From Vairimorpha necatrix (taxonomy: Eukaryota): a stretch of 64,000 nucleotides of DNA. A program made the position numbers and the translations under genes. The notes beneath the pieces are model-generated. The model ran no database searches. It was not told the origin of the DNA and worked only from the letters and a program-made list of their open reading frames with translations. Below, piece by piece: positions 1 through 30,142 of the stretch. Location: NCBI GenBank assembly GCA_036630325.1, contig CP142730.1, positions 1-64,000 on the forward strand. The letters run 5' to 3'. Position 1 is the first letter of the stretch; every line of letters starts with the position of its first letter.

Positions 1-2872
1 ACCTAACCTACCTACCTAACCTACCTACCTAACCTACCTAACCTAACCTACCTACCTAACCTACCTAACCTACCTAACCTACCTAACCTACCTAACCTAC
101 CTACCTACCTACCTAACCTACACCTACCTAACCTACCTAACCTACCAACCTACCCTACCTACCTAACCTACCTAACCTAACTACCTAACCTACCTAACCT
201 ACCTAACTCCTAACCTAACCTAACTACCTACCTACCTAACCTAACCTAACCTACCACCACCAACCTACCTAACCTACCTACCTACCTACCTACCTAACCT
301 AACCTACTAACCTACCTACACCTACCTACCTAACCTACCTACCTAACTACCTACCTACCTACCTAACCTACCTACCTAACCTCTAACCTACCTAACCTAA
401 CCTACCAACCTACCTAAACACCTAACCTAACCTAACCTACTAACCTACCAACCCTACCTAACCTACCTAACCTAACCTAACCCTACCTAACCTAACCTAC
501 CTAACCTACCTAACCTACCTAACCTAACCTACCTACCTACCTAACCTAAACTAACCTAAACCTACCTAACCTACTACCTAACCTACCTAACCTAACCTAC
601 CTACCTAACCTAACCTACTACCTAACCTAACCTAACCTAACCTACCTAACCTACCTACCTACCTAACCTAACCTACCTAACCTACCTACCTAACCTACCT
701 ACCTAACCTAACCTACCTACCTACCTAACCTAACCTAACCTAACCTACCTAACCTACCTAACCTACCTACCTACCTACCTAACCTACCTAACCTACCTAA
801 CCTACCTAACCTACCTAACCTACCACCTAACCTACCTAACCTACCTACCTAACCTAACCTACCTACCTAACCTAACCTAACCTACCTACCTAACCTACCT
901 AACCTACCTAACCTACCTACCTACCTACCTAACCTACCTACCTAACCTACCTACCTAACCTAACCTACCTAACCTAACCTACCTAACCTACCTAACCTAC
1001 CTACCTAACCTACCTAACCTAACCTACCTAACCTAACCTACCTAACCTACCTAACCTACCTACCTACCTACCTACCTAACCTACCTACCTACCTACCTAC
1101 CTAACCTACCTAACCTACCTACCTACCTACCTAACCTACCTAACCTACCTAACCTAACCTACCTACCTACCTACCTAACCTAACCTACCTACCTAACCTA
1201 CCTAACCTACCTACCTACCTACCTACCTAACCTACCTAACCTACCTAACCTACCTACCTACCTACCTAACCTAACCTACCTACCTACCTAACCTAACCTA
1301 CCTAACCTACCTAACCTACCTAACCTACCTAACCTACCTACCTAACCTACCTAACCTACCTAACCTACCTAACCTACCTACCTACCTAACCTACCTAACC
1401 TAACCTACCTACCTACCTACCTACCTAACCTACCTAACCTACCTAACCTACCTACCTAACCTAACCTACCTAACCTACCTAACCTACCTAACCTACCTAC
1501 CTACCTAACCTAACCTACCTACCTACCTACCTAACCTACCTAACCTAACCTACCTACCTACCTAACCTACCTAACCTACCTACCTACCTACCTAACCTAA
1601 CCTACCTACCTACCTACCTACCTAACCTACCTAACCTACCTAACCTACCTAACCTACCTAACCTAACCTACCTAACCTACCTAACCTAACCTACCTACCT
1701 ACCTAACCTACCTAACCTACCTACCTAACCTACCTAACCTACCTAACCTACCTACCTAACCTAACCTACCTACCTAACCTACCTAACCTACCTACCTACC
1801 TACCTACCTAACCTACCTAACCTACCTAACCTACCTAACCTACCTAACCTACCTACCTACCTAACCTAACCTACCTACCTACCTAACCTACCTAACCTAC
1901 CTAACCTACCTAACCTACCTACCTACCTAACCTAACCTACCTACCTAACCTACCTAACCTACCTACCTAACCTAACCTACCTAACCTACCTACCTAACCT
2001 ACCTACCTACCTAACCTAACCTACCTACCTACCTAACCTAACCTACCTAACCTACCTAACCTAACCTACCTACCTAACCTACCTAACCTAACCTACCTAA
2101 CCTAACCTACCTACCTACCTAACCTAACCTAACCTACCTAACCTACCTACCTAACCTACCTAACCTAACCTAACCTACCTACCTAACCTACCTAACCTAA
2201 CCTAACCTACCTACCTACCTACCTAACAACCTAAACCTACCTACCTAACCTACCTAACCTAACCTAACCTAACCTACCTACCTACCTAACCTACCTACCT
2301 ACCTAACCTACCTACCTACCTAACCTACCTACCTACCTACCTAACCACCTACCTAACCTAACCTAACCTAACCTAACCTACCTACACCTACCTAACCTAA
2401 CCTACCTAACCTAACCTACTAACCTACTAACCTACCTAACCTACCTAACCTAACCTACTAACCTACCTAACCTACCTAACCTACCTAACCTACCTACCTA
2501 CCTACCTAACCTACCTAACCTAACCTACCTACCTACCTACCTAACCTACCTAACCTAACCTACCTACCTAACCTACCTAACCTACCTAAACCTACCTAAC
2601 CTACCTACCTAACCTACCTAACCTACCTACCTACCTAACCTAACCTAACCTACCTAAACCCTACCTAACCTAAACTACCTAACTACCTACCTACCTACCT
2701 AACTAACCTACTAACCTAACCTACCCACCCTACCTACCCTACCTACCACCACCTACCTAACCACCTAACCACCCTACCCTAACCTACCCCCACCACCACC
2801 TACCTACCACCTACCTAACCTACCTACCTACCCTACCTAACCTACCTAACCTACCCTACCTAACCTACCTAA
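1..2872 (-). repeat. Telomere: irregular mix of CCTAA and CCTA units (TTAGG/TAGG on the G-rich strand)
   Basis: Uninterrupted CCTAA/CCTA array from base 1, C-rich strand at the 5' end as expected for a left chromosome end. Variant units (CCA, CCCTA) accumulate proximally at ~2640-2870. Confidence 0.97.
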
Positions 2873-3033
2873 CACGTAAGCTTTTAGCCCTCAAACCTTC
2901 CTGAATCTTTTGTTTGAAAAAAATTCAGTTACATCAATATGTAACTAAAATAAATAAAAAATGGAAATTTTTAGATAAAATTTATCTAACTATCTTTATA
3001 ATTCAATTATTTTTTTTCAGATTAATGATTATA

Positions 3034-3072
3034 TGTTATACATTTATTTAATATGAAAGTTCAACCCTAAAA
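3034..3072 (-). repeat. 3' LTR (39 bp) of the telomere-proximal gypsy element
   Basis: tgttatacatttatttaatatgaaagttcaaccctaaaa matches 6150-6187 (first 20 nt identical) and abuts the PPT. Confidence 0.82.
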
Positions 3073-3149
3073 TCCCCCACCAAACGGGTAGTCTCACGTT
3101 ACAAGCTTCTAATTTTCCATTTTTATAATCTTTTAGGTCATAATGTTGT

Positions 3150-5470
3150 TTCTTAATGTATCTTCAGCTATCAGTCCTTACAATATAAGAATTATTCTCA
3201 GACTTTCCCCTCCTTTTATCAACATTTGTAAATCTTCCTTTCATACTTTTCATCTATTTACCCTTGTTTTCTCTTATTGCAATTCTCACAGCCTGATCTA
3301 CTTCAAATTTTTCTCTATGCCTTAATTTAAAATTACTTGAATACACACCCTTTTTATTGTTTTCAATAAAGACTTATTTTCCTTGTTCTTTCCATGCTTC
3401 AATTGTGTTGAATTAATCGCTCTGTGTAAGAATTATTAGTTCTTACAGCTTGTTCTAGTTTTTCCTCTGGGTTTCCTTCTTTTTCATGGATCATCGATTC
3501 CCTTATTGTTCAAATACATCGTTCTATTCTTCCATTACTCCTATGAGCTTCTAAACCTACTTTCTATTGCATAATTTCGTTTACTTTACACCAAGTTACA
3601 AACTTATTACTGACAAATTCCTTACCGTTATCCGTAAAATATTCATCTGTGTATCCATCTTCCTTAAACAATTTTTTCTAAAATTTTCGTAATAACATCA
3701 CTTCTCTAATTTTTCATCTTTGCGCCCCATACTCTTTTAGAAAAGTAGTCAGTCCCTGCATAGCACGTATCTTTCCTTTTCTGCAATATCCATTACGTAT
3801 AAACTACTTTTTCTAATTTCTTAAATATTGTTACAAAATTTCAACCTCCGGTCGTTTTTCTGTTATTAAAACTCATACTTCACAATTTTTTAGCGTTGTG
3901 GTTATCTGGTCCAATACTTGGCCAGTACAATCTTTGTTTTTCCTTATAATAAGTTTTTTTCACTTCTCGATGATTTAATTTCTCAGGAACTCTACGAATT
4001 TCTGTTCTCACTTATTTCTTTGTGTTGTATTTATTAATTTCTCCTGTTGAGAACTTCCATAAGTTTTTGCTTTCACTTTTAACCATGCGCTTTTTTTCTT
4101 TCCCTTTCATTTGTTTTTGGTCCGTTTCTCTCTTTCGCCTTTTTCAATTACTTCGTTATTTTTTAATTGTCTACTAAGAGCATACACATAATCATCAATT
4201 CTCGTTTTACATATTCAATAGTAAAATCGATCTCTTGTATATATTCTATCCATCTCTTAATTATGTAATTAGTGAAAGACGGTTTGTTCTAATCTCGGCC
4301 ATTTCTTTATGATTTGTCATTTATTAAAATTTTCTTCCTCCAAAACTGACTCAAATTTCTTTATTTCAAATAGCACTGCCAACATCTCTTTTTCGCTAAT
4401 CGTATACTTTTTTTCTGTTGGTGTTAACATTTTTGATGCCCATTGTATCGGAATCCACCTTTCTTTCTTATCTTCTTGGAATAGTATGGCTCCAATTCAC
4501 GTATCGCATGCATCCGTTCTTAACTAAATATTTTTACACTATCTACTATTTTTAAGATTTTCACACCCTTTAAACCCTCTTTGATATCAAAAAAAGCTCT
4601 TTCCATATCTTAGGATCATTCCTATTTACTATCTATTTTTAGTGCTTCTGTAAAATTCGCTGAACGATAAGCATAACGGGGAATAAAATCTCTAAACCAG
4701 CCTGCCCGTTCTTTAAATCATCTAAGATCTTTTATGTTTTTAGGCCTTCTGTATTCTAATGTCTCTTGCTTTTTTATTTCGTCAGTTTAATGTCTTCTCC
4801 GTTAATTGTTTCTCCAAGTAGTTATACTTCTCCTTTATATTGCATCTTTTTAAGTTTCTTTTAATCCACATTCGTTAAATTTTCGAATTACTTGTTTTAA
4901 TAAATTTTCGTGTATATTACTATCTCTTGCATGAATAACAATATCATCCATGTACAACTCAAACACAACAGCCTCTGAACTTATCTAAAACTCCGTTCAT
5001 CACTCTTTGCATAATATAAGGAGATTTTTAAATCCCATTACCATGCCATTCCATTCGTAAACTCTAACATTTATCTCAAAAGCTGTCTTATGCTTTTGAG
5101 CTTTCTAAATTTCTATATGATAGAATCCTCCTTTTAGGTCTATAACCAAAAATACTTTAGAACCTTGATGCCCTACTAAGGTCTCTAACAATGGCAATTC
5201 ATACGGATCTTTTTATTCCAGTTCATTATAAGCCATCAAATTGCTTCTCAATTGTACTTCACCATTTGGTAATTTTATGGGCTTAATTGGGCTTATCCAT
5301 TCGCTCTTTGTCCTTCTGATAATACCTCTACTTTAATAAATTAATATACTTTTCTCGATTATTATAAGAAATATTTTTTACTTTTTTACTAATTTCACTC
5401 ATTGTTTTGTTTTGATAGAACATTTTCTCCCTGTTAAGTATTTTATTTTCCCTTTGTCTTTTCCTAATAC
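3150..5470 (-). pseudogene. pol: pol pseudogene (reverse transcriptase, RNase H, integrase) with many stops and frameshifts
   Basis: Minus-strand translations. RT: VIDLKGGFYHIEI (~5110-5150), KTAFEINVRVYEWNGMVMGFKN (~5025-5090), YMDD (4943-4954). RNase H: LRTDACDT*IGAILFQ and PIQWASKMLTPTEKKYTISEKEMLAV (~4375-4523). Integrase: YWPS, DYFSK, FTDNGKEF (~3615-3640), HRSNGRIER (~3520-3547). Confidence 0.93.
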
Positions 5471-5471
5471 C

Positions 5472-6150
5472 TCAGAAATTTTCCTTCCATTCTTCATATT
5501 TATTAATATTTTTTCTCTTTTTATCTTGGTTTGTATTTTTTACGTAAAAACCGTCTCTTGAGTTATCTCTTTCTACATCCACTAGTAGTCTCAATTTAAA
5601 ATCATTTCCTTTTAATATTTTCATTTTACTATTATCACGAATCCCAAAATATTTAACACTTTTATTTTCATTATTCTCTTCATGTCTTCCTTTACGCTCC
5701 ATACAACCTCTAGCTATATGTATAATTCTTCCACATATAAAACAATGGTTTTCTTCTCGTCTTTGATATTGAAAGTTTCTTCCCGTCACTGTTACAGTCC
5801 TAGTCAGTTATTCTTTAATCTTCTTTTTAATTTTTCTTTCATAACCTCTACCATATCTTCGAGTTCTCTACTCCTTAATTTTTCCTTGTTCTTATTCTCT
5901 TTCTTTTCAACAACTAATTTATCAATTTCATCAATAATATTATTCCAATTAATCATAATGATTAAATTTTTATCAATAATAAAATCCTAAAGTTCAGAAC
6001 TTACTTGTTTTATCGACTGCTTCGTTGTCACATCTTTTACATCTTTCTGCATTCCGATGATTGCTTCTACTCTCTGAGCTTCTTTTAGTAATTTTCTATC
6101 TCCTAAACACAGGTCTCACTTGTTACCCTTTCGTCTTTTGTGTTTGCCAT
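5472..6150 (-). pseudogene. gag: Short gag pseudogene with CCHC zinc knuckle
   Basis: ORF 5472-5789 contains CFICGRIIHIARGC (CX2CX4HX4C). A K/E-rich broken frame extends back to an ATG at 6150-6148. Confidence 0.8.
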
Positions 6151-6187
6151 GTTATACATTTATTTAATAGGAGGTTCAACTTTAACA
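6150..6187 (-). repeat. 5' LTR (38 bp) of the telomere-proximal gypsy element
   Basis: Minus strand TGTTAAAGTTGAACCTCCTATTAAATAAATGTATAACA: TG...CA ends, contains AATAAA, followed directly by TGG (PBS position). Confidence 0.82.
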
Positions 6188-9100
6188 TTATAATTAAAAC
6201 ACAAAGTATTTTTGGTGTAATTCTGCGAATAAATTTATGTAATAATATATTGTAAAAGTAGTAAATTACTTCTTTAATTTGTAATATATATTATTGTAAA
6301 AAAGGTCATTCTTGTGTTTTAAGATATTTTTTTTTACTGGAAATATTCGTATTATACTAAAAAAATAATATTTTAGGGATATTATACAAATAACTTAAAT
6401 CTCGAATGATGTACTACGCATAAATACAGACACAGGAGCTTATACTCTTCGGAAAGCCTATAAAAACCACTTTGAAAAAAAAATTAAATCATTATTCCAA
6501 GAAAGTAAAAGGACGTAAAAATTTGGAAACATTAAGGACTAGATTCTAGTGTTTGTTTGAAAATACAATACGAATAACTAATTACATTTGAATATTTCAT
6601 TATAAAATTATGTTATATTGCAATAGAACAATGAAAGTAATTATGATTTATTTAAATTAATATGATCTAATTTATTTTTATAAAATAAAAAATTTTAGAA
6701 AAAAATTGTTTTTTTATATTTTGTTATTGAACAATTATATCTACTCAGCTGCTGCATAAACATGCGGCTTCTTCTAATGTAAAATCTTATTTATCTATGT
6801 ATTTGCCCAACTTTTCAGGAAGTCTTTTATAATTACAATTGTTATTGTGTCTATTTTTTATGTTTTCTTTAGGATTCAATTTTTTATGGTAGAAAATAAA
6901 AATTTTAAAAATAAGAGGGAGTGAAAATATTGGATAATTGAAAAATACATCCTATTAATAATATATTTGATTATATGATCATAATACCATAGATATGTTT
7001 TGTTTATACTTTTATATTTTCTTTTATAACTGTTAGATTTACTTCTTGCTTGATCTTCATAAAATTTTTTATTATGAAGAGAACTTATTTGATATTATTG
7101 ATAACCAGTTAAAATTGATATATTTTTTGCGATTAAGATATGTTGTATATTTAAAATTATTGCGTAAAAAAGGCGAATAGTTTAAAAGTAACCTATCATT
7201 ATCTATGAAAATGTTTTACATAATGTGTTATGTTAAAATGTTATTTTTTATGATAAAACCAATACATGGATTATTAAAAAACTCTAATTTTTAATTAAAT
7301 CATTAGATTGATTTCATTCTACGAAAATCAAAATGCTTATTCCAATTAAAATTCATAAATATTTTTTTGTTAAAATATTTACAATTTAATTTTTCAATTT
7401 ATTATATTTTTTTTTTCTCAATAAATATTTAAAGTAATATAATTTAATAATTATTAGAAATCGTCAACCGCATCTATGTTTAATATGTATTTGGGTTTAT
7501 GCATTAAAATATTTTAATTAAACTTTTTTTTTTCATTATTGAAGATAAGATTTGTTTTTTAATTTATATGCTCTTACATTATATTAATCTTAAATTTATA
7601 TAAATATATATTAATTAGTTGCATTGGGTTTTGTTTATACTTTTTATTAACCCTTCTTAGCTCTTATTGATTTATATTTTTTAATTCTTCGGTTAGTGTA
7701 AATTTTTTTCAATAAAATTACTAATTCTGTATTTTTTTTTAATTTTATTTTTATCATACTTTAAAAATAATAAATACGTGGAATATATGATGTTTACTAG
7801 AAAAATTCAAATGAAGAAATACGAAATTTATTTCCAGCCTACTTTTGTGTATAAATTTACAATTTGTATATATATTGATTATCTTATCATTTGAAATGTA
7901 TTTAATATGTTTTCTGACCATTATTAGATTTATTTCTTAATTATTTATCATTATTTTCATTGAAATAATTTTTTGTTTTGATATTTTATAATTTTTTTCA
8001 GTCTATAACCAAAAATTTCAAAATACTGTTGTAATAAATGATAACAGAATGAAATGTCGTTTGTTGTGTTCCTCTATATATGTTTATATTTTATTTTCGT
8101 CGTATGTCTTTATGTTTCTTTGAGACTTTAAATTTTTATTTATAAATTTTCTTGATATTATTTGGTTTATAAATGCTAAATTTTTATAATAATTTTAAAA
8201 ACTTAAGTTAAGCATAAAAAATGAGTTTACAAATATGAAGAGCTTTCCAATGTTTCATTGCGATAATTAGTATTGAATGTTTACTATAAGAATAATTTAA
8301 ATCATTTTTGAAATTTTTTGAAATATTGATAGTTTTTTGATAACTTTAATCTACAATTTTCTAAAACCCTCCGTGATATGGTTTCCTTTAAAATACAAAT
8401 ATATAAAAATTTTTAATATTTTTATAAATTTTTCGTTATTGAATCATATGTTTTCGTGTAGGTTGTATATATCATCATGTTTAATAATGTAGGTGTAATA
8501 TATTGCATTTTAAATTTTCGATTGATACATTATTTTTAAAAAAAGATAAAGTCGTTATATGTTCTAAAACTATTACTTATACTAATCAGTCGTATGTGTA
8601 TTATTATGAGCGAAATTTGAAAATATAAAATTATATTTAATGATCAAAAAATATTATTTTCGTTTTAGTGGTTGAGACTTCTAGATTAATTAGTCGTGAA
8701 AATTTAATTGTATAAAAATTTCCTTCTTTTTACTAATCTAAAATTATTTGAATGTTTAGTTTGAATTTTTTTATTAACTATTCTAGATGAAAATATTTAT
8801 TTTCAAAACGAGTTTTAGTCCAATACGTTTTTTTTAAAAAAAATTATCCTACTACTTTAAATATATTTTCTTTTTAAAATTATTTTTGTAATATTAACCC
8901 CAATTATCTTTATTGAAAGTGCATTTCGAAATATATTAGTTTTTTCAAAGATTTTTATTGGCATTATTTTATTTTACTTGTAGGTCAATCTTTGTGTATT
9001 AAAAATTTATATTGAAGTATAATTTTTCTTGACCTTTTCATACTTAGAATTAATCTAACGCATTTTATTGAACTATACAATATATAATATCAAAATTAAA

Positions 9101-12716: not shown

Positions 12717-13341
12717 TAAAAGATTTATTGAGTTAATTTTCAATTATGTTTAGATATTCATAGCACAGCTTTCCCCGGTATCGCTCATGGGATTCAGCTC
12801 TTCACAGACTTTGGTTTCTGTGGAATTATTAATGTTTTCCAACTTCACTTTAGCAGCTTCATTCCCCTTTGCCGACACCACTTCTTTAACAGTCGCCATA
12901 TTCGCTAGTGCGCTTACAGCTCTAGCCACTTCTTCTTCTCCTGCATCCTCATGATCGTATCCTCGTCGTCGTTCCAAAGAGATGGACTCTAGAGTCTTCT
13001 TCATCACAATAGACTGGATATATGCTTCCAGGTAGGGTTGGATTTCTAGCTCCTTGATGTACTTTCTGTGATATTTGGTCACCACTCCATCCCATGTCAT
13101 TACATAAGGAACTATTCTTGTCCGGGATTTATGTATTAGTCCCAGTTCATTTGCAAGAAGGTCATATTTTCTTAGTTTTTCATTCTCAACTATAGTAAGT
13201 CGATCCTGGTTGGTTATACCAACTTCAACTATTATAATTTCTTTCTTCTTCTTGTCAAACACAAGAATATCAGGCTTATTATGGGTTACCTTTATATTAG
13301 TGGATATTCTCGTATCTACTCTTATTTCTGCACGATCATTT
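12717..13341 (-). mobile_element. 5'-truncated RLE-type non-LTR retrotransposon (R4/Dong-like), family A; endonuclease domain in an open frame
   Basis: ORF 12750-13341 has KPDILVFDKKKKEIIIVEVGIT...EKLRKYDLLANEL...PYVMTWDG (PD-(D/E)xK restriction-like endonuclease). 33-nt 3' UTR with AATAAA. 11-bp TSD GGTAAAAATAA at 12706-12716 and 13342-13352. Confidence 0.9.
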
Positions 13342-13611
13342 GGTAAAAATAAAAAGAAAATATTTATAGAAAAATAAATTCTAGAAAATTCATTTGGAGG
13401 GAAAATATAATAATGTGGTAAATAATACCACAAATTCATATTTAATATGGAAAAATATAGTTTATTCCAGAAAATAACATAATAAATACCATTGTTATAA
13501 TATATATAAACAATCTTTATAAATATATAAAACATAATTATTATTATTATTCTAATAAAAATAAATTAATACGGGATATGCTAATGGTGTTTTATATTCT
13601 AGTATATTCTT

Positions 13612-15345: not shown

Positions 15346-18300
15346 ATCATTCTCATACTTTATAGAAATTTATATCATATACACGTTTTATGATATTTTT
15401 ATTTATTAAACTCATTTAATTATTCATTATAATAGAATGAAAGTCTTTAATATGGTTAATATAATGTTCTAATTATTTATGACTTTACATTTAAAATATT
15501 TTGTTCTACTGATTCATCTTAATTATAACTGTAAACAGTTTATATGATAATACACTATCTATTTATTACTATTATATTATCTAAAGTTGAATGTTTACTA
15601 ATAAAGACTTTTAAAGCTGATATTAAACTTTGTCTGAATCAGTGTCAATATATACTTTATATGACAGATATGTAATTGCAATCAATTACCGTATGCGCAA
15701 ACTTTCAAATTTTATTATATGCTAAATTTCTTATCTAATGAATTCGCTTTTCAATTTTTATAAATTTTTCGTAAATGTTAATGATCCTTCATTAGATATT
15801 ATTTCTAGACATTCTCTTCTTTTCTCATAATATTACTCTCTTCTTAATTTTTATTTTTTTCATGTAAGAAAAGAGAGAACCATTACATAGAATTTTGTTA
15901 ACAATAAATTTAACCTCATACGTTTAGTGTAGTAGTTTAATGATAAACACTAATTTAAATTCTCATACTCTTTACAGAAGGGCATATTGTATAATTTTTT
16001 CGTTTCAGAACATATGTTTTTATCTATCTTTATATTACATCGTCAAGATTCGCTGCTGATAAGAAACTAAGATTTAAATAAATTCTAAAAAAAACCATGT
16101 ACATAATTTACTAACACAAATAACACTTATCATTACATGATTCTTTTACGCGACTTCTAACATTACTAAAATTTGATCCTGCTTTCTACGAACTTCTTTG
16201 ACCACAAGTTATTCGAATTTTGTCAAATGAAGATATAGAATCGTATAAAAGAAAGGAAGATGCTCCTAGATAAATCCTTCTATTCGTAAATTCACCATTA
16301 AGAAATTTCATTAAACACTGCATCAGTAATGTTTTCTAAAAAACTGGCCTCTTTTTGAAAACACGGTCGATGTAAACATCAATTTTATTTCTAGTTGTAA
16401 GTGAAGTTGTTCATTAATAGTAAAGTTCTATTTTTGTATTTTTTGAAGCTCATTGTTACATAAAATTTTTTAATGATTTCAAAAATAAACTTCGTCGTGC
16501 GGGGAACAAAAAAGTTTTTTCAAAAAACCTGAAATTAGAAAGTCATTGTTTTAAAGGCTTGGTTACCATGTTTTTTTTATTAGTTTCGTTAATCTTCAAG
16601 ATAAAGGACTGGATATCATTTTATATCTCATAAATATTTACAAAATGTTCTACATATTCATTGTCTACTACAAAAAATATAATTTTAAAATTTAATATTA
16701 AAAGCTACTTTATACAGAATTACTTATTATTTTTTATATAATATATCTCTAATTTATATAGAACATTAGTTTTTAGTTTATTAATACTCTATATGTAAAC
16801 TTTCCTTATATTACACTCTTGATTATGTTTCTGTTCGAAAAAGTGTTTGTTATTTTGTTTTGAACATAATATTTTTTTATCCACTCTATATATATATTGC
16901 TATGCAAAATTTATATTCAAATTCATTAACTTAAAAATTTCTACATAGATAGTTTTATGCCTATAATGCAAGTTGTTTTTGATTTTTACGAGTGTGTTAG
17001 TTTTGCATCATTTTGATCCTTGTATTATATTTTTATTGTAGATCCGTTTTTGTCATTTACAAATAATAATTGAAAAATATAAATACTTCAAATTATTATA
17101 TTTTAACATAATGTATTTTTAACTAAGCATTATTCTTATTTTTAATTTTACATAGATACCTTGAATTAAGCGGTTTTACTAATATTCTAACCTTAAAACA
17201 AGTTTTTATATTAATTCGACATGTATTATACGTATTAAGCGTATTTCATCTAGGTTTTATAAGGTAACTTCAATATTACTTAAGATCTAGACTTTATCTA
17301 CAACTGATATTTATTAAAACAATACATCTCTATTATAGAAACAGTACAATATTCAAACTAACAATTCATAAAGATTATCAAATGTGTAACCTTATGTTTT
17401 GTTATACAATAGAAGATAGGTTAGAATTTACGGAACAAAAAAAACAATGACAGTATTACTAATTTAGTAATGATACAATAGAACCTTGTCCTTTAAACGA
17501 GGAAATAAGCTATGATTCTTTTTTATAAATATTGGACTGTTTTTCAAAGAAATTGTTTCTTTTATTTTGTAAAAATTAATTTCTCGCCTTTAATATTATA
17601 AATGGCTTAACCATATTATCCAATTGTTTTTGTAAAAAACAACATTTCGATAATCTTTCACCTAGGGATTTGTTTTTCTGCCAAAAAAAAATTAGTGTAC
17701 GGAATTTGCTTTTAGAAATTAGAAATAAGGGCGAAACAAGTTAATTGGTTTTTTCTGCATAATTTTTTGTCAAAATATTTTTAAAGTAACTTATAATGTG
17801 AATATAATGCCAATTTACTTTTTTTTTATAGAACATAAATAAAATATGTGCATTTTTTATAAAAATTAAATTTGCAACCAAATCAATCCCATGAAGGTTC
17901 AGTCAAAATTTATGTCTGCAATTATTAAATCCATTGTATAATATCTAATGTAAACGAATAAATTTGATTTAGCGTACAGTTTTATAACTATTTTTTGATC
18001 TGTAATCTTTTTATTTGTTTTCTTTTCTATTATATTTATCGTACTCTTCTCTATTTGAAATATAAATGATTTAGATATTCTAATTATTTGCAAACAGAAA
18101 GTATATCTATTAGGGGGTGTGATTCAAAAATATATCTATTCAATTGTTTTTTAGAAAGGTTATATTTAAATGAGCATTCATCCCATCTTATGAAAAATAT
18201 TTTCATCACTGGAATATTCAAAAAATATAGTATCCCAAAATGAAATTTTTTCACTGTAAAGATTATATAATCTCACAATAAAATGTTGACGTAATTAAAT

Positions 18301-19864
18301 CTAAACATATCAAATATTAAATTGCGGAATTATATTACTCTATTGTATATATATATTGTAAAAAAATGATTTTATTTTTAATCAAAATCACAAATAATTA
18401 TAATTTCGTTATTTCCACTGTTTTTTTTTTTATTTCTTAACTTTTGTTTATTTTATAATCATTTATAACTGAAAATTTCTCTTATTTTTTTTTATTGTAG
18501 GTCAAAATTACTTTAATCCACCCTATAAAATATTAATAATTATATCTTTTTACTGACATTATATTTATAGAATATATAAGATACGTAAATTCTATTTTTT
18601 AATTTGTCATTTATTTTTTTTAGGTTTTTAGCATTATCTTGACAAAGAGAACAAAAGTTTGATTGTTTACAATACTTACTTTTTATTGATTTGGTTCTTT
18701 ACTATAATTTGTTTATTCTTTTTGCATACGAAATATTTTTTATTTATTAATTAATCGATATTGTTCATAACTGAGAAACAAATATATTTTCTTATTATAT
18801 ATCATTTAAAACGTTATCGTTAATTTTAGTAAGTCTGTAAGAATAAAATTTATTTGACTTGATTCTGGGGTATTCATTCTTTTATACATAGATACATCTG
18901 ATTGTTGCAATAAATATGAATTTATTACCAAGATTTTTATTTCTTAGTATATTTATGTATATTTATATTAAGCGGTTGGCATCTTAATCATATCTACACA
19001 TATTTTAGTAAAAATTTATAAATTGTGTTGGCATTTTAAATTTCTAGTACCATATAATTTTTATTTTATTTTAATAAAAACTTCGAAGTTGATTTACGCC
19101 CTAAATAAGGAATATTGTTGTTTTCTTTTAGATTGTTCATTTCTGTGCTTTTCGATCCTTAATAATTAATCTTTCCTAGTCTTTCCCTAAAAGTGTCTTA
19201 TTTAAATAAAATGCTAATGACTAATTGGAGATATTTAAAACACAGAAAACATTTGTTATTTAAATCTTTATATGTCTTTATTACATATACATACCTGCTC
19301 ATTTTGCCATATAAAGTCAATCATTTCTTCAGTCTATCGATGTGCCAGTCAATAATAGCTAATCCTCAGGGCAGGCCACGTCTCAGTGTGCAAATGATTT
19401 ATCACACATAGATTATTCAATTAGTAGTATTGATGGGAAATCTGTTCAAAATATAAATTTCTTAAATCATATAGTTCGGTTGTTAAGATAAATAGCTCCA
19501 AAACAATGTATTTAAAAGTGTTTGTTGAATAAACGATTAAACTAATTTTTTATGTTTCTCTATTATATATACTAACTTTACTTTGTTTGCAAGCAATAGA
19601 TATAATTATAATTTTTCAATCGTAGAATATTAAGTCTATATTTGAAGTTTTGTACTTATAATACTGTTTATTCTTAATTTTAATGATATTATTTTCGTCT
19701 TGTCGATATTATTATCTCTTCTTAAATATATATACATATACAAATACATCTCTTCTTAATAATTAGTTAGTCGTTTAAAATGTCTAGAATAATTACTTTC
19801 AAGCCTTCATGATATAGCTAAATTCTTTTGTAATGAATTATTTTGGGGTGATTATTTTCCTTGT

Positions 19865-20310
19865 TAATTATCATGATTTTCTTCTCCTTCTTTTTACATT
19901 TTTATATATACTTGTCATCTCTGAAAATCAAAAAATTTAAATCTCTTTAATTCAAAATTATGACATTTTAGACTAATTATTTTTCCATGATTTTCTTTTC
20001 TGTCTTATTGTATATATATATGTATATAGAATTTTCTTCATTATAGGATGAAAATTCCAAAACTCTAAAAATCAAAATTATGACATTTTAGACAAATATT
20101 TTTATATGATTTTTATCAACTTCTTATTTTTTACAAATGTGTATATGTTCTTTTCATCAATAAAGAAAGAAAATCAAAATTATGTCGTTTTAGATAATTT
20201 ATTTTTTCATGATTTTATTCTTATTCTTGGTGTTTGAATATATATACTTGTCATCCTTGAAAAATATAAAATTTGGAAATTCAAAAAACAAAATTTTGAC
20301 TTTTAGCCTA
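19865..20310. repeat. Degenerate ~120-bp tandem repeat (~4 units); second copy at ~28170-28630
   Basis: Recurrent caaaattatgacattttagac...catgatttt at ~19955, 20075, 20175 and 20290. Confidence 0.65.
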
Positions 20311-21000
20311 TATTTACTTTAAAATTTCATATTCTTGGCGAGTAGAAGGGAAGATGAAATATTTTACATGAACTTAAAAGAAAGAGAGTTAATTATCCAA
20401 TAGATATAGGGCATTTCTAACTCTTAACTATTACCGAATACTTGCGCTGCACTATCTCCGACGTAACCATTGGGATTTGATAAGAATATTTTTATATACA
20501 AGCCTCTAATCGCATCATTAAATCAATAAATATATTAAAATAAAGGTTTTAAAACCTCTGTATAGATTTATCAGATTAATATAATGTCTATATAATTATA
20601 AATCATCTAGATCTCAGATGGCTCTTTCTCTTACACAGAACACTAAAAGCAAACTTATTAAACTTCTTTGAAACTAATGGAATAATTGAACAGATCTCCA
20701 TCTTATACTATATCTTGTTTGTATAAAATCAAACTTCATAAATTTCTACATCAAGAGTGCCATAATTGGCTTTTAGATCCCTATAGAATATACAGCTATG
20801 GTATTTTGAAACACAGAAGGACAAATAATATGTAAAAAAATTCGAATTATAAATATATTTTAAAAATTAATAATCATTTCATTACAAAAGATACTTTTCA
20901 TAATATTTGTTTAGTCTAAAAATTTTGCCAATTTTATTTTATTGACTTCTATATGGCCAACAGCATCCATTTCTACAATGCGTATATAAATTTATATTTT

Positions 21001-21070
21001 ATTCCCACAGGAATCGAACCTTGGACCTTCGATATCCAAATTCAAGGTGCAACCATTCTGCCAAGCACAA
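21001..21070 (-). pseudogene. Degenerate tRNA-like sequence (copy A)
   Basis: Minus strand has A box TGGCAGAATGG and B box GGTTCGATTCC, but the acceptor stem does not pair. Confidence 0.6.
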
Positions 21071-21804
21071 CTATTTTAATTTTTTGTTATCCTTTAAGAA
21101 AACCAATTATATTTTCAACTTCCTTTAATTTTTGTTTTCTTTCTATACATAAAGAAAAATTTCAAATTCAGATTAAAAGATCATTAAGTGATTTAACCAA
21201 ATAATAGAATAATTTACAATATTAGTTTTATGCTTTCTTATATAAAATTTTCTTTGATCCGAATATACCTTTCTATTATATATATACTTGTTATACTAAA
21301 AAATAATATACACTTTACACGGCAAAAACGAGTATATATTCTATATTATATACAAAAAACTATCATATGTGATCGCAAATTTTAAGATTTACTGGCATCG
21401 TATTTCAATTTCTCTATTATATCTGGCAATTTTGTTATTCTTATTTTCCATACCCTCTAAAGAAAATTTTTTTAAATAATTTTTTCAACAAATCAAAACT
21501 GTCATTTGTGAGAATATGTTTAATATGTATTTGATCTGCTACAACTATATATAAACTACATCTTTTAATAATTTCAACTAAAAAATAATAAAAACATATT
21601 TATGTGATTTAACTAATATTCTTTATTGAGATTTTGTTTTTCTTAGATACTGTGATGTACATTACTACAACACATGGACAGATGTCAAAAATATTTCAAC
21701 CGTTTCGGATGGCATGTCAAGTTGGGTCACACAATCAAACGAAAGTTGCATGGTCGTTACTACATTCGTAAGAACGCCAATGTTTGTGTTTAGTGTTGAT
21801 AACA

Positions 21805-22112: not shown

Positions 22113-22167
22113 GAAATGTTTAGATTTTTGCAGAATGCAAATAAGATCTTAAAATATTAATATATAT

Positions 22168-22393
22168 TGTGGACTGATGGTTTCCCATCAGTCCGAGAAG
22201 AATGTTTTAAACTAATATTTTTATTATTCTTCATACCCTTCTGGGTATGATTTTCTTTTATATTTATAGGCGGGAAAATATTATACATTTTCCCTCCATA
22301 AACATAGTTGGGAGAAGGAAGAGAATACTTATAGAATCGTATTCTCTGAGCTCCAGGGCAATCTTAGGACCACTGGAGATCTGTCACTTGACA
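22168..22393 (-). repeat. 3' LTR (226 bp)
   Basis: Base-for-base identical to 24488-24713. Confidence 0.95.
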
Positions 22394-22415: not shown

Positions 22416-24608
22416 CTAGGTTCCCATTTGACGACACATCTTAAAGTACTTGCAGTAAATAGTGACTGCGTCCTTATTTAGGTTATATGAATTATAGGCT
22501 CGCTTTATTTTGGCTACAGGGGTAATATATGACTTTCCCCTTTTATCAATCACTTTCTTCTTGAGGTTTATCGGCGGGTTTCGCCTTTGTATTGTGTTTT
22601 GTAGTTTATGAACACCTAATTTCTCATTTTTTATAACTATTCCTGTTTCCTCTCCTGGTTTAATCATCGTGTAAATGATATGTGTGTAGTGAGGCACTTC
22701 TAAACCTTCGTCGTAATTTTTACGCCATCCATTTATCATAAAATTAAAATTGAATGGTATATTTCTAAGCCCAGGGGGTACACTACGCCCGTGAACATTT
22801 TTTATTAGTCCGTTATATGGCGACTGTTCTCTGTATTTCTCCCAGGTACTTATCTGACGATGCCTTAAATTCAAGCCCCATCTTATACATTCAGGTGGAT
22901 CATGTAATTCTTCAATGTAAGGAGTTGGGTAACCAACTTGTTTTTTAATTATGTAAAGTTTTCCCGGGTTCACATATATTCCTTTGTCCCTGAAAAATCC
23001 TTTGTCTAAAGCAATCGGGATAGTACCCGTCGAACAAGTTTCTCCAGTATGGGTTTCTTTCACCAGCTCTACGGGCTTGACTCTTATCGCTTCATTTTGA
23101 CTTATTAGTCTTCTATGTTGAATGTTCTTTAATGCCGTAAGATCCTTTGGCACTTTCAAATCTATGCTACGATGTACACTTGAGCTTTGGTCTTTAATAT
23201 GGAATGTTATAGAAGGTTTTATATCAAGTTTATTACTTTGTTCTTTTTCTTCTTGAACTAAATTCTCTCCGCCCATTTCTGTTATATACGTGTCTGGTTT
23301 TTTCACCATAGTTGTACAGACAGATTTCTTTGTTCTGTCATATTCCATTTTATCGAGACTTTTTAGTAGATTTAGTTTCTTGGTATCTTGTATGCCAATG
23401 ATGAAGTTTTCCGGTAATTTCTCTTTTATATGAGCCTCGATCTTTAATTTTTTCTTGATCTTTGGCTTTTTGATAAAAACTTGTGTTTTCCCTTCTGCTT
23501 CAACCTGGTCTCCTTTTCTATCTACCTTAAGCGTATCTATTATTGGTTTTAATTCCAATTTCTGAATCATTGTTTTACTTTTAAGATTCACTCGAGATCC
23601 GGTATCATTAAGAGCGGATATTTGTGTTGTTCCCGAATATAAATTTATCCTCGGGCGGATATCTTGTAATTGAGTAGTATTTTTTTCTTTCCCCAACTTT
23701 AAAAGCTTGGCAGAATATACTTGTTCTGCCTTTTGACCAATGAGTTTATTATTTTTCCTTTCTCGTTTAGTGGCTTCATATGTTGGTTTCCTACTAAGTG
23801 TTTTCTTTTTGTTTAAATAGTTATTTATAAAAGTTTGTTTGTTCTCAACTAATTCCAGCAATTCCAACCAATCTTTCGTTTCTTCAATAGACTGTTTCAA
23901 CCTATCAGGGGAGTTCTTTCCTATAGAAATCTTTGATCTGGCAAAATATTCAGGGTTTCCTTTTGCACATCTTTTGAGGTCATAAGCGTAATTTAAAATG
24001 TCGCTTTCCTTTGGACCTTCCACATATAGATGCATGAACCTATCTGCTATATCTTCTGTTAGTTTCTCTTTTAGATACTTTTTTTTAAACTGGGTTTTGA
24101 ATGAATCATAGTCTGTAATTTCATCACCCTCGAACGCTTTGAACCATGTTAACGCCTTGCCTTTAAGTTTAGATTTGGCAATATCTAGCGTTTTATCTTG
24201 CGTATACACATCCTCAATTTCGCGGAACTGAGTTAAAAAATCTTCGGCTTGTTTTAAAGTTTCGCCGTTAAATTCTGTCCACCTATTGATCAGACATATT
24301 TTTTCCATGTGCGTGATGAGACTATTAAAGTGATCGTTCAAATCCTCGTCACCGTTACCACCATTGTGGACTGATGGTTTCCCATCAGTCCGAGAAGAAT
24401 GTTTTAAACTAATATTTTTATTATTCTTCATGTGAGTGATAAGACTATTTAGGTGATCGTTCAAATCCTCGTCACCGTTACCACCATTGTGGACTGATGG
24501 TTTCCCATCAGTCCGAGAAGAATGTTTTAAACTAATATTTTTATTATTCTTCATACCCTTCTGGGTATGATTTTCTTTTATATTTATAGGCGGGAAAATA
24601 TTATACAT
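22416..24608 (-). CDS. Gag-aspartic protease polyprotein with eroded RT-like C-terminus (730 aa from the first ATG; real start may be 24554)
   Basis: Gag motif KLKGKALTWF...YDSFKTQFKKKY. Protease ALNDTGSRVN...FIIGIQD. RT-like remnants YPTPYIEEL and VPPGLRNIP but no YxDD. No RNase H or integrase. Confidence 0.85.
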   Translation of the reverse strand: MYNIFPPINIKENHTQKGMKNNKNISLKHSSRTDGKPSVHNGGNGDEDLNDHLNSLITHMKNNKNISLKHSSRTDGKPSVHNGGNGDEDLNDHFNSLITHMEKICLINRWTEFNGETLKQAEDFLTQFREIEDVYTQDKTLDIAKSKLKGKALTWFKAFEGDEITDYDSFKTQFKKKYLKEKLTEDIADRFMHLYVEGPKESDILNYAYDLKRCAKGNPEYFARSKISIGKNSPDRLKQSIEETKDWLELLELVENKQTFINNYLNKKKTLSRKPTYEATKRERKNNKLIGQKAEQVYSAKLLKLGKEKNTTQLQDIRPRINLYSGTTQISALNDTGSRVNLKSKTMIQKLELKPIIDTLKVDRKGDQVEAEGKTQVFIKKPKIKKKLKIEAHIKEKLPENFIIGIQDTKKLNLLKSLDKMEYDRTKKSVCTTMVKKPDTYITEMGGENLVQEEKEQSNKLDIKPSITFHIKDQSSSVHRSIDLKVPKDLTALKNIQHRRLISQNEAIRVKPVELVKETHTGETCSTGTIPIALDKGFFRDKGIYVNPGKLYIIKKQVGYPTPYIEELHDPPECIRWGLNLRHRQISTWEKYREQSPYNGLIKNVHGRSVPPGLRNIPFNFNFMINGWRKNYDEGLEVPHYTHIIYTMIKPGEETGIVIKNEKLGVHKLQNTIQRRNPPINLKKKVIDKRGKSYITPVAKIKRAYNSYNLNKDAVTIYCKYFKMCRQMGT

Positions 24609-24713
24609 TTTCCCTCCATAAACATAGTTGGGAGAAGGAAGAGAATACTTATAGAATCGTATTCTCTGAGCTCCAGGGCAATCTTAGGACCACTGGAGAT
24701 CTGTCACTTGACA
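24488..24713 (-). repeat. 5' LTR (226 bp)
   Basis: TG...CA ends; the minus strand has TATAAATA followed by AATAAA. Confidence 0.95.
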
Positions 24714-27700
24714 GTAAAGTTCTATTTTTGTATTTTTTAAGCTCATTTTTACATAAAATTTTTTATTAATTTTTCAAAATACACTTCGTCGTTTAAGGAA
24801 CAAAAAAAATTTTCAAAAAAGTAAATCTTAATAGTCATTATGGAAAAGACTTGGTTAAAATGTTTTTTTTCTAGTGACGTTATCTTAAAGATAAAGGACT
24901 GGATATTCATTTTATTTCTAATAAATATTTTCAAAATGTTCTACATATTCAATGTCTACTACAAAAAATATAATTTTAAAAAAGTTATAAAAAACTACTA
25001 TATACGGTTGTACTTTTTATTTTTTATACAATAATCATCTCTAATTTATATATAGAACATTCGTTTTCAGTTTATTAATACTCTATATGTAAATTTTTCT
25101 TATATTACACTATTTATTATAAAAATTATCAAAAAACGGTTTGTTATTTTGTTTTAAAAAAACTATTTTTTTATCGACTCTATATATATTGCTGATGCAA
25201 GTTTTATTTTCAAATTTATCATCTTAAAAATTTCTACATGGATAGTTTTATGTCTATAATGCAAGTTGTTTTTGATTTTTAAGAGTGTGTTGGATTTGCA
25301 TCATTTTAATGCTTGTATTATATTTTTATTGTAGATACGTTTCTTGTCATTTTCAAATAAAAATTGAAAAATATAAATACTTAAAATTATTATATTTTAA
25401 CATAATGTATTTTTAACTAAAAATTATCTTATTTTTGATTTTACACAGAGACATTGAATCATGCGGCTTTACTTTATATTCTAAACTTATAACAAGTTGA
25501 TTTTATTGGTTCGACATGAATTGTACGTATTAAACGTATTTCATATATAGGTTTTATAAGGTAATTTTCATATTTATTTCTTGTCAAGATTTTATCTACA
25601 ACTGATATTTTATAAAGAATACATCTTTATTAAAGTATTAATACTTAAATAACACGAAATTCTGTACGATTTGCAAAAATGTAACCTTATGTTTTGTTAT
25701 ACGATAGAAGATTAGGTTCGGATTTACGGAACAAACAAATAACAATGACAGTATTACTATTTTAATAATTATATATTTGTTCCTTGTTCTTTATACCAGG
25801 AATGTAAGCTACTGATGCATCTAAAATAAATATTGAACTGTTTGTCAAAGAAAGTGTTTGTTTAATTTTGTAAATATTAATTTCTCGCATATATATATTT
25901 TCGCGCTTAATATTATAAATGACTTGAAGATAACTCAAAATTGTTTTTGTAAGAAACGACATTTCGATAATCTTTCATCTAGGGATTTGTTTTACTGCCA
26001 AATTAAAATTGTGTTCGGAATTTGGTTTTAGAAATTAGAAATAAGGAACAAACGAGTTAATTTGTTTCATGCATACATTATTTTTTGTCAAATTATTTTT
26101 AAAGTAACTTATAATGTGAATATAATGTCCTTTTACTTTTTTTATAGAACATAAATAAAATATGTGCATTTTTTATAAAAATTTAATTCACAACCAAATC
26201 AATCCCAGGAAGATGTAGTCAAAATTTATGTCTGCAATTATTAAATCCATGGTATAATATCTAATGTGAACAATAAATTTGATTTAGTGGACAGTTTTAT
26301 AACTATTTTTAGATCTGGTATCTTTTTATTTGTTTTCTTTTCTATTATATACAACGTCCTCTTATCTGTTTGAATTATGTATGATTTAGATGGTCTAATT
26401 ATTTGCAAACAGAAAGTATATCTATTAGGGGTGTAATTCAAAAATATAATACTTCAATTGTTTTTTAGATATGTTATATTTAAATGATCATTCACCCTAT
26501 CTTATGGAAAATATTTTCATCTCTGAAATATTTAAAAAATATAGTATTCCAAAATGAATTTTTTCCATTGTTAAGATTATATAATTTCACAATAAAATGT
26601 TAACGTAATGAAATCTAAACATATCAAATATTAAATTGCAGAATTATATTACTCTATTGTATATATGTTGTAAAAAATGGTTTTATTTTTAATTAAAATC
26701 ACAAATTAATATAATTTTGTGTCTCCTACTTTATAATTCCTTTATTTTTCAACTTTTGTTCATTTTAATATCTTATATAACTGATTATTTCTCTTCTATT
26801 ATTTATTGTAAGTCAAAATTACTATATCAGTCCCATAGAATATTGTTAATAGTATATTCACATTGACTTTCTATTCTTAGAGGATAAATGAAACGTGAAT
26901 TTTATTTTTTAATTTGTCTCTAATTTTGTTTTTGGGTTTTACTATTATCTTGCCAAAGAGAACAATGATTAGATTGTTTACAATACTTAATTTTCATCGA
27001 TTGGGTTCTTTAATATAATTTGTTTACTCTTTTTACATATAAATATTTTTTCTTTATTAATTAATCGATATTATAAACACTCAAAAACAATCATAATTTC
27101 TTATTATATATCATTAAAAATGTTAATGTTCATTATGTTTAGTCTGTACGAATAAAATATTCGAATTAATTGATTCTGGAGTGTAAATTCTCTTATACAT
27201 AGATACATATGATTGTTGCAATAAATATGAACTTATTAATATGATTTTTTTTTCTTAGTATAAATATATTAAGCACTTGCCATGTTTATTATATCTACAC
27301 GTATCTTAGTAAAAATTTATAAATTTTGTTAGCATTTTGAATTTCTAGTATCATATTATTTTTATTTTATTTTATATAAAGATTTCGAGGTTGATTTACG
27401 CCCTAAATAAAGAATTTTTTTGTTTTGTTTAATAAGTTCATTTTTTCTGCGCTTTTCGATTCTTAATGCATATCTTTCCTAGTCTTCCACTAAAAGTGTC
27501 TTGTTTATGTAAAATGCTCTTGACTAACTGGAGATATTCAAACACAAGAAACATTTGTTATATAAATCTTTATATGTCAACATTACAAATATTACCTGCT
27601 TATTTTGCCATCTAAAGTCAATCATTGTTTTTGTCTTTCAATATACTTGGAAATAATAGCTAATACCCAGAGCAGGGCAGGTCTCAGTATGCAAATGACT

Positions 27701-29323: not shown

Positions 29324-29394
29324 ACGCCACCGGGAATCGAACCTTGGACCTTCGATATCCAAGATCAAGGTGCAACCATTCTGCCAAGCACACT
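29324..29394 (-). pseudogene. Degenerate tRNA-like sequence (copy B), possibly Pro(TGG)-derived
   Basis: GTGTGCTTGGCAGAATGGTTGCACCTTGATCTTGGATATCGAAGGTCCAAGGTTCGATTCCCGGTGGCG: A and B boxes, stem TTGAT/ATCGA with loop CTTGGAT; acceptor and T stems are broken. Confidence 0.6.
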
Positions 29395-30142
29395 TATTTT
29401 AATTTTGTTATCCTTTAAGAAAACCAATTATATTTTCAACCTCCTTTAATTTTTGATTTCTTTCTAAAAATAAAGAAACATTTCATATCAGTCAGATTGA
29501 AAGATCATTAAGCGATTTAACCAAATAATAGAATAATTTACAATATTAGTTTTATGCAATTCTTATATAAAATAAAATTATATAAGATTATCTTGATCCA
29601 AATATACCTTTCTAATATATATACATGTTATACTAAAAAATAATATACATTTTACACGGCAAAAACAAGTATATATCCTATATTAAATACAAAATAATTT
29701 CATATGTGATCGCAAATTTTAAGATTTACTGGCATCGTATTTCAATTTCTCTATTATATCTGGCAATTTTGTTATTCTTATTTTCCATACCCTCTAAAGT
29801 AAATTTTTTTAAATAATTTTTTCAACAAATTAAAACTGTCATTTGTAAGAATATAATTAATATGTATTTGATCTGCTACAACAATATATAACTACATTCT
29901 TTTAATAATTTCGACTACAAAATAATAAAAACATATTTATGTGATTTAACTAATATTCTTTATTGAAATTTTGTTTTTCTTATATACTGTGATGTACATT
30001 ACTACAACACATGGACAGATGTCAAAAATATGTCAACCGTTTCGGATGGCATGTCAAGTTGGGTCACACAATCAAACGAAAGTTGCATGGTCGTTACTAC
30101 ATTCGTAAGTACGCCAATGTTTGTGTTTAGTGTTGACAACAT

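Follow-up and report, generated by a model that had tools for sequence, protein, structure and literature searches.

A degenerate Ty3/gypsy element with 38–39-bp long terminal repeats next to a telomere of Vairimorpha necatrix

Results

Structure and state of the element

The first 64,000 nucleotides of contig CP142730.1 from the microsporidian Vairimorpha necatrix (GenBank assembly GCA_036630325.1, forward strand; hereafter the window) were analysed around a Ty3/gypsy-type retrotransposon of 3154 bp, which occupies positions 3034–6187 on the minus strand. In element orientation, the order of its parts is a TATAA duplication, a 38-bp long terminal repeat (LTR), TGGCAAACAC.., an internal region of ~3.08 kb ending in ..GTGAGACTACCCGTTTGGTGGGGGA, a 39-bp LTR and again TATAA (Table 1). 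We regard it as highly probable that this is an old, inactivated, full-length insertion of a very compact microsporidian Ty3/gypsy lineage and that the 38–39-bp repeats are its real LTRs.

Table 1. Features of the element and of the adjoining chromosome end (L numbers denote related loci and P0003 an intact homologue, both described in the text; TRF, Tandem Repeats Finder)
Feature	Position	Strand	Evidence
Telomeric array, mixed CCTA / CCTAA (TAGG / TTAGG) units	1..2873	.	TRF periods 4 and 9, 83–84% matches
Target-site duplication, left copy TTATA (+ strand)	3029..3033	.	direct reading
3' LTR, 39 bp, TT..CA, with AATAAA and the frame-ending TAA (3048–3050)	3034..3072	-	
Polypurine tract GGTGGGGGA, immediately before the 3' LTR	3073..3081	-	same place and type in L001, L005, L081 and L084
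Integrase region (zinc-binding, DDE core and C-terminal parts), degenerate	3131..4119	-	tblastn, P0003 665–998: three pieces, three frames, 9 stops
RNase H region, degenerate	4193..4523	-	Pfam RT_RNaseH; tblastn, P0003 529–639
Reverse transcriptase region with YMDD, 13 in-frame stops	4526..5332	-	Pfam RVT_1; tblastn, P0003 256–527
CCHC zinc knuckle CFICGRIIHIARGC of the gag-like N-terminal part	5703..5744	-	open reading frame 5472–5789 (-)
Primer-binding-site-like sequence TGGCAAACAC.., no spacer from the 5' LTR, within coding sequence	6132..6149	-	
ATG formed by the last base of the 5' LTR and TG of the primer site; opens MANTKDERVTSETCV, then a stop	6148..6150	-	like the N-terminus MANTRN.. 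of intact relatives
5' LTR, 38 bp, TG..CA, with CCTCC and an TATTAAAT / AATAAA core	6150..6187	-	direct reading, blastn, core search
Target-site duplication, right copy TTATA	6188..6192	.	direct reading

The 5' LTR, read from 6187 down to 6150, is TGTTAAAGTTGAACCTCCTATTAAATAAATGTATAACA and contains, within 38 bp, the TG/CA ends and the AATAAA reported in the initial annotation, which had been made from the sequence alone. The 3' LTR departs from the TG start by one change, at its second position. Alignment of the two LTRs gave 33 identical columns out of 39, with one 1-nt gap. When the element was compared with the whole window by blastn, the LTR pair was the sole match (85% over 41 nt, E 7.7e-6). 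A 22-nt LTR core, allowed up to three mismatches, matched the window only at the two LTR sites, with 0.04 matches expected, and none of 100 shuffles reached two matches. Both TTATA copies are perfect over 5 bp; the probability that two random 5-mers from the non-telomeric window are identical is 0.0036. Direct reading and these chance controls thus confirmed the short repeats, the polypurine tract and the perfect duplication. Neither a second copy nor a solo LTR nor another pol remnant was found elsewhere in the 64-kb window by blastn and the core search.

The element had also been described as a complete gag–reverse transcriptase–RNase H–integrase unit. This stood as regards structure, which is full length, and failed as regards coding capacity, as the copy cannot encode the protein. 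Residues 20–998 of P0003, an intact homologue of 1002 aa, were matched by tblastn in nine pieces that fall in all three frames and contain 26 in-frame stops; across the element, the three frames hold 116, 79 and 70 stops. The enzymes lie in the order reverse transcriptase, RNase H, integrase, all on the minus strand (Pfam, tblastn), and the Pfam matches to RVT_1 (E 1.2e-14, 4859–5185) and RT_RNaseH (E 8.5e-18, 4326–4556) are in two different frames. The sole noteworthy open reading frame (ORF) of the element, of 105 aa (5472–5789, minus strand), carries a CX2CX4HX4C knuckle. The copy is long dead although structurally full length, and the ~15% divergence between its LTRs agrees with this state.

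Related elements and their terminal repeats

Fifteen homologues were aligned and three sequence collections were scanned for related loci. Nine fetched loci (L001–L005 and L081–L084), with best-segment identities of 35–60% to the query, were taken as the family, from metagenome contigs or mis-binned contigs of metagenome-assembled genomes (MAGs). Both LTRs could be defined in three of the nine (L001, L084 and L005) and one LTR in two (L081 and L083). L001, of 3163 bp, has 39-bp LTRs identical at 38 of 39 positions, with TGGCACCCAG after the 5' LTR, GGCGGGGA before the 3' LTR and TTATA on both sides. L084, of 3530 bp, has 67-bp LTRs that are 100% identical, and its ORF of 1109 aa is intact at both ends, with the first ATG within the 5' LTR. 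L005 has 66-bp LTRs, likewise 100% identical, and its contig stops 4 nt past the 3' LTR. In L081, a 38-bp 3' LTR follows GGAGGAGGGGA, and the ORF stays open over 911 aa as far as the start of the contig. A candidate 5' LTR of ~47 bp was tentatively placed in L083, where CA is followed by TGGCAACACC. L002 shows the start of a 3' LTR after GGGCGGGGA, the end of which is ambiguous without a 5' LTR, and the fragments L003, L004 and L082 gave no definable LTR.

The 3' LTR of L081, TGTTGGGTTATTAGCCCCTATTAAATAAATGACTAACA, agrees with the window 5' LTR in length and core (CCTATTAAATAAATG..TAACA) and is identical to it at 27 of 38 positions by hand count; the two elements share 66% DNA identity over 1.9 kb. 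TGTT..ACA ends were found in the LTRs of L001, L005, L084 and L081. TGG directly follows the 5' LTR in the window element, L001, L005, L083 and L084, three of which keep TGGCACCC, and the relatives read TGGCACCCGA, TGGCACCCAG or TGGCAACACC at the primer-site position. The purine tracts before the 3' LTR are GGCGGGGA in L001, GAAGGGGGT in L005, GAGGGGGGA in L084 and GGAGGAGGGGA in L081. No relative with long LTRs was present among the nine family loci. The fetched relatives, examined for intact members with long LTRs and for a missing boundary of repeat plus duplication, overturned the assignment in neither respect. The proposal that the tiny repeats are the true LTRs of a class is supported by these relatives, which carry LTRs of 38, 39 and 66–67 bp.

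A blastn search for LTR pairs in 26 fetched loci returned pairs in four (L001, L005, L084 and L054) and none in 22. Collapse of LTRs by the assembler or short flanks most likely account for these 22, and for that reason the loci provide no usable comparator distribution of LTR lengths. The 3.03–3.16-kb lengths of the contigs that hold the Logan homologues were considered as a sign of tiny LTRs and rejected, as a de Bruijn assembler cuts at any LTR longer than k. Scanned viral contigs contained no family member and gave merely distant integrase-like matches of ~60–150 residues at 28–36%. Named polyprotein relatives were found in Nosema granulosis (52%), Vairimorpha necatrix and Enteropsectra breve; the named homologue matches included no N. 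bombycis protein. L081–L084 stem from bacterial MAGs (Clostridium sp., Turicibacter sp. and Erysipelotrichales) and are microsporidian-type gypsy elements of low guanine-plus-cytosine (GC) content (32–37%); their place in bacterial genomes is most likely a binning error, the contigs being eukaryotic.

At a likeness of at least 80%, 387 contigs of run X1 and 628 of run X2 fall on the stretch, which shows the family to be both abundant and diverse. Contigs of run X1 also lie on the flanks (2901–3033 and 6193–6800), with eight at position 2964 and three at 6409, whereas run X2 left the bins 6266–6547 without contig cover. Among the loose contig ends listed for four runs, in which many diverged copies were seen, the element boundaries did not occur; because the flanks are multi-copy too, contigs do not permit a test of the boundaries.

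Polyprotein organization

The homologues have a single gag–pol ORF, with a helical N-terminal part followed by a CCHC knuckle, reverse transcriptase, RNase H and integrase. Pfam returned RVT_1, RT_RNaseH, Integrase_H2C2 and rve in this order in all 15 homologues and zf-CCHC in 11 of them; the names of the integrase subdomains in Table 1 were taken from Pfam matches on intact homologues. The best matches in the PDB were Ty3 Gag-Pol (7q5b, E 1.7e-61) and Ty3 reverse transcriptase (4ol8, E 4.7e-58), followed by 8r0s, an 'Enzymatic polyprotein' (1.3e-39), and retroviral reverse transcriptases at 1e-27 or weaker. Judged by sequence likeness, the reverse transcriptase and RNase H appear closest to those of Ty3/gypsy elements, and not to those of copia, Bel-Pao or retroviruses.

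A retropepsin was expected between gag and the reverse transcriptase. Of the 37 Pfam families matched by the 15 homologues at E ≤ 1, the 25 listed include no such protease, and the D[ST]G motif was not found in the linker between knuckle and reverse transcriptase (70–110 aa, in a gappy alignment). An AlphaFold model of P0003, computed from a 19-sequence alignment (mean predicted local distance difference test score 77.1), places an all-helical segment at residues 14–135, including one 67-residue helix, before the knuckle, a disordered stretch at 156–191 and then the reverse transcriptase, with no β-rich domain ahead of the latter. The N-terminal part of the homologues gave no Pfam gag or capsid match, no fold search having been made. 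The subgroup represented by the 1109-aa protein of L084 gave a sub-threshold match to gag-asp_proteas (E 4.8e-4). On this evidence from sequence and model, the subgroup of ~1000 aa appears to be devoid of a detectable protease, contrary to expectation.

Coding sequence within the terminal repeats

The junction of the window 5' LTR with the primer site reads ..TATAACA/TGGCAAAC.., that is, ATG GCA AAC.., which gives MANTKDERV... A second ATG in the same frame lies inside the LTR, 9 nt upstream of the junction ATG (6157–6159). The N. granulosis homologue P0001 begins with MANTRNQRE, and the N-terminal pattern MA/MG or Mx(0–7)M[AG], as predicted from ..CA/TGGCA, was present in 24 of 37 close homologues, with at least one false positive (P0037). 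The start codon is thus formed at the LTR/primer-site junction or is an in-frame ATG 9–18 nt upstream within the LTR, and the primer site is coding sequence.

At the other end, the frame of P0002/L081 runs through ..ETTRLEEGMLGY, across the purine tract, to a stop 12–14 nt into the 3' LTR. The corresponding frame of the window element ends in ..ETTRLVGDFRVELSY, with the TAA of TATTAAATAAA inside the 3' LTR as its stop. Read-through of the purine tract into the 3' LTR was found in five of the 37 close homologues. In some members, a single frame accordingly extends from LTR to LTR, the purine tract then being coding too. Coding sequence running into both LTRs fixes the LTR ends.

Transcription signals and proposed replication

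AATAAA or ATTAAA was found in all LTRs examined. The LTRs of L001, L005 and L084 have ACCCTT 9–15 nt upstream of an ATG, where that of L081 has CCCC, and the 66–67-bp LTRs additionally hold an TATAAATA box. For Encephalitozoon cuniculi, the pertinent passages of PMC2803860 describe 5' untranslated regions (UTRs) shorter than 7 nt with a CCC-like motif just before the start, as well as AAUAAA ~20 nt ahead of cleavage, with frequent overrun. In Nosema, ACCCTT and TTTTTTTACCCC directly before start codons are described as enriched in highly expressed genes in the part of PMC11592040 devoted to them. The motifs in the LTRs of the relatives match these start-codon-proximal motifs. The suggestion of the initial annotation that compact promoters and near-absent UTRs allowed the LTRs to shrink has circumstantial support from ACCCTT/CCC and AATAAA in the LTRs of relatives.

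In the mechanism that we propose, the LTR would be a complete, though minimal, arrangement of unique 3' (U3), repeat (R) and unique 5' (U5) regions, and replication would be canonical, with a tRNA-primed minus strand, two strand transfers and joining by integrase at the TG/CA ends. U3 would span ~20 nt and bear a microsporidian CCC/AT-rich core promoter, transcription would start a few nt before the first ATG, and R (with U5) would measure ~10–20 nt. If the first ATG of the LTR were used (positions 29–31 of 38), the start would fall near positions 19–27, leaving 12–20 nt for R (with U5). The AATAAA of the 3' LTR would direct cleavage at or just past the LTR end. Retroviral R regions of ~12–15 nt can still support strand transfer.

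Assessment of the interpretation

Several observations count against this interpretation of the insertion and of its short LTRs. L084 is not flanked by a target duplication (TTTAT versus CTAAC), and the four remaining flank bases of L005 do not match, although they are too few to judge a duplication; these two loci come from metagenome-type assemblies of repeated elements. The evidence from elements with both LTRs amounts to four, including that of the window, and three of these come from possibly chimeric metagenome or MAG assemblies. L081 has an intact ORF, but its 5' end is off the contig, and the window copy is dead, so neither demonstrates activity of a copy with 38-bp LTRs. The X1 contigs that span a boundary are probably paralogous subtelomeres rather than independent insertions. 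The only tRNA in the window, tRNA-Met (CAT) at 59525–59597 on the minus strand (ARAGORN), ends in ..GGGGCACCA, unlike the primer-site sequence, and no matching primer tRNA was found. As to transcription, the window LTR has CCTCC instead of CCC, and a start within 7 nt of the junction ATG would leave an R of 3–9 nt, seemingly too little for strand transfer. The position of AATAAA at 24–29 of the LTR predicts cleavage past its 38 bp, and the partition into U3, R and U5 and the transcript ends are inferred from sequence.

The 38–39-bp repeats could instead be deletion remnants of longer LTRs, whether of this copy alone or of a defective sublineage, functional family members then having LTRs of at least a hundred bp. 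This would agree with the dead state of the window copy, with the 115-bp repeats of L054, a distant low-GC element, and with the longer LTRs of the gypsy consensus sequences from Anncaliia algerae (~169 bp in Consensus_retroA and roughly 225 bp in retroB; PMC4202319 Supplementary File S1). However, the same deletion is not expected in both LTRs of one dead copy, and relatives that differ by ~34% in DNA share the 38–39-bp length and the core. Moreover, the 100%-identical LTR pairs of L084, which has an intact ORF, and L005 still measure only 66–67 bp, and the LTR ends are fixed by the coding sequence that enters both. We consider such remnants very improbable. Further removed still is the notion that the repeats and TTATA are chance matches around a truncated pol fragment: the window, at 26% GC, holds many short AT-rich repeats in two copies, but the E value of the pair and the shuffle control argue otherwise, the repeats sit exactly against the purine tract and the TGG primer site, they are homologous to the LTR of L081, and the length of the element is close to that of L001. 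A chance origin of the LTR pair is effectively excluded.

The termini may also be real while the RNA derives from host read-through or from a TATA-like target site, with the whole short LTR serving as terminal redundancy. A 38-bp LTR has scant room for promoter, start site and R. In E. cuniculi, transcription is described as overrunning and some transcripts as spanning several genes (PMC2803860), and the two duplications are TATA-like, that of the window being TATAA when read along the element and that of L001 TTATA. Two duplications in AT-rich DNA are nonetheless a small sample, TTATA (0.8%) and TATAA (0.7%) belong to the commoner 5-mers of the window, and the ACCCTT/CCC motif plus ATG in the LTRs of the relatives suggests an internal promoter. 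Transcription from outside the element is unlikely in our view.

Chromosome-end setting and other features of the window

The window begins at a chromosome end, and the telomeric array stops 160 bp before the element. N. muscidifuracis, according to the relevant section of PMC11592040, has a composite TAGG/TTAGG telomere and, at many of its chromosome ends, ~20 kb of conserved subtelomere, while the V. necatrix genome paper (PMC10759460) names the telomere repeat as TAACC only. Both the X1 contigs on the flanks and the large contig numbers of X1 and X2 agree with such a subtelomere. The contig cover of the flanks suggests that one organism carries a telomere-proximal block, dead element included, at several chromosome ends and that another lacks part of it.

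Farther inside, two 228-bp direct repeats that are 100% identical (22166–22393 and 24486–24713) bracket and overlap an ORF of 730 aa at 22416–24608 (minus strand), which starts within the right repeat and matches Retrotrans_gag (E 1e-5), without a reverse transcriptase. Tandem copies of 123 bp were found at 24301–24546. Either an internal duplication or a young LTR element of non-autonomous type may account for this arrangement. Around the gag-like ORF region, direct repeats of ~3.6 kb (18000–21600 and 26315–29914), 72–95% identical in blocks and ~8.3 kb apart, may have arisen by segmental duplication or be terminal repeats of great length. At 45407–45862 (minus strand), a 151-aa ORF of the Rho/Ras family shares 80% identity with a Rho-like V. 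necatrix protein of 204 aa; its C-terminus seems to be truncated, and the ORF may represent a paralogue or a subtelomeric pseudogene. A 261-aa ORF at 12750–13535 (minus strand), in a GC-richer stretch (30% in 12–14 kb), gave no Pfam match at E ≤ 0.01 and is possibly derived from a transposable element.

Discussion

Ty3 of Saccharomyces cerevisiae is ~5.4 kb long and has LTRs of ~340 bp, separate GAG3 and POL3 frames, an aspartic protease and a 5-bp target duplication. The window element resembles it in the order reverse transcriptase–RNase H–integrase, the TG..CA LTR ends, a primer-binding-site-like sequence by the 5' LTR and a polypurine tract by the 3' LTR, and the target duplications of the window element and L001 are likewise of 5 bp. 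Unlike Ty3, the window lineage measures 3.15 kb and has 38–39-bp LTRs, one LTR-to-LTR frame and a ~1000-aa subgroup without detectable protease. The LTR length of 38–67 bp is far under the usual Ty3/gypsy range. Mag of Bombyx mori is a Ty3/gypsy element with unusually short LTRs of ~77 bp; if this value is correct, the LTRs of the window lineage are about half as long.

Among microsporidia, retroA, retroB and others from A. algerae are Ty3/gypsy elements in which one polyprotein replaces separate gag and pol, according to the portion of Parisot et al. (2014; PMC4202319) that treats them. RetroA (~3.5 kb) resembles the window lineage in its small size, a GGGGGA-type purine tract and LTRs with TATAAATA and AAATAAATG motifs (PMC4202319 Supplementary File S1). 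It differs in its LTR of ~169 bp and in encoding a D-T-G protease motif, on reading of the printed consensus (PMC4202319); the LTRs of the window lineage are 2.5–4 times shorter, and its 1000-aa subgroup has no protease. The Nbr elements of N. bombycis, first described by Xu et al. (2006; PMID 16797019), are also Ty3/gypsy polyprotein elements of the Nosema/Vairimorpha clade, with Gag, protease, reverse transcriptase, RNase H and integrase in one polyprotein, as cited in the part of PMC2474625 concerned. By the features tested, the window element is a Ty3/gypsy element (Metaviridae) of the microsporidian single-polyprotein kind, and it departs from that kind in LTR length (38–67 bp), in the protease missing from the 1000-aa subgroup and in LTR-to-LTR coding.

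LTRharvest, LTR_FINDER and LTR_retriever operate with a minimum LTR of ~100 bp. With such a minimum, standard LTR-finding software would probably miss short-LTR elements, which would be reported as nothing more than isolated genes for reverse transcriptase or 'endonuclease'. The main text of the V. necatrix genome paper (PMC10759460) contains neither the word LTR nor the word retrotransposon, and genes of this sort go by the names endonuclease or reverse transcriptase; 'LTR' is likewise absent from the main text of a survey of microsporidian transposable elements (PMC7313128). No published account of such short microsporidian LTRs was found in a search that did not extend to Xu et al. (2006) or to the supplementary tables of Parisot et al. 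(2014), so a prior description is possible. That the short-LTR class has been overlooked until now is plausible but unproven.

The size of microsporidian genomes is driven by transposable elements, and elements missed in this way would bias estimates of repeat content, the dating of insertions and the view of transposable-element dynamics in microsporidia. The finding also carries a warning that microsporidian retroelement contigs get binned into bacterial MAGs. We put forward, with more reservation than conviction, that an autonomous lineage of Nosema/Vairimorpha type, with ~3.15 kb, 38–39-bp LTRs, no protease of its own and one LTR-to-LTR frame, is the most compact LTR retrotransposon design so far. 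Every signal of such a design would share sequence with another signal or with the coding region; this applies to the promoter and the poly(A) signal, the integrase-binding ends, the start and stop codons, the primer site and the purine tract. Should active copies replicate with 38–39-bp LTRs, the terminal redundancy of their RNA would be at most ~10–20 nt, a new natural lower bound for LTR content. The lineage would thus constitute a natural experiment on the LTR minimum, with integrase attachment sites, promoter, R and poly(A) signal in 38 bp and seemingly without an element-encoded protease. It makes testable what the shortest R for minus-strand transfer is, whether a tiny core promoter is sufficient and how an unprocessed Gag-Pol may function.

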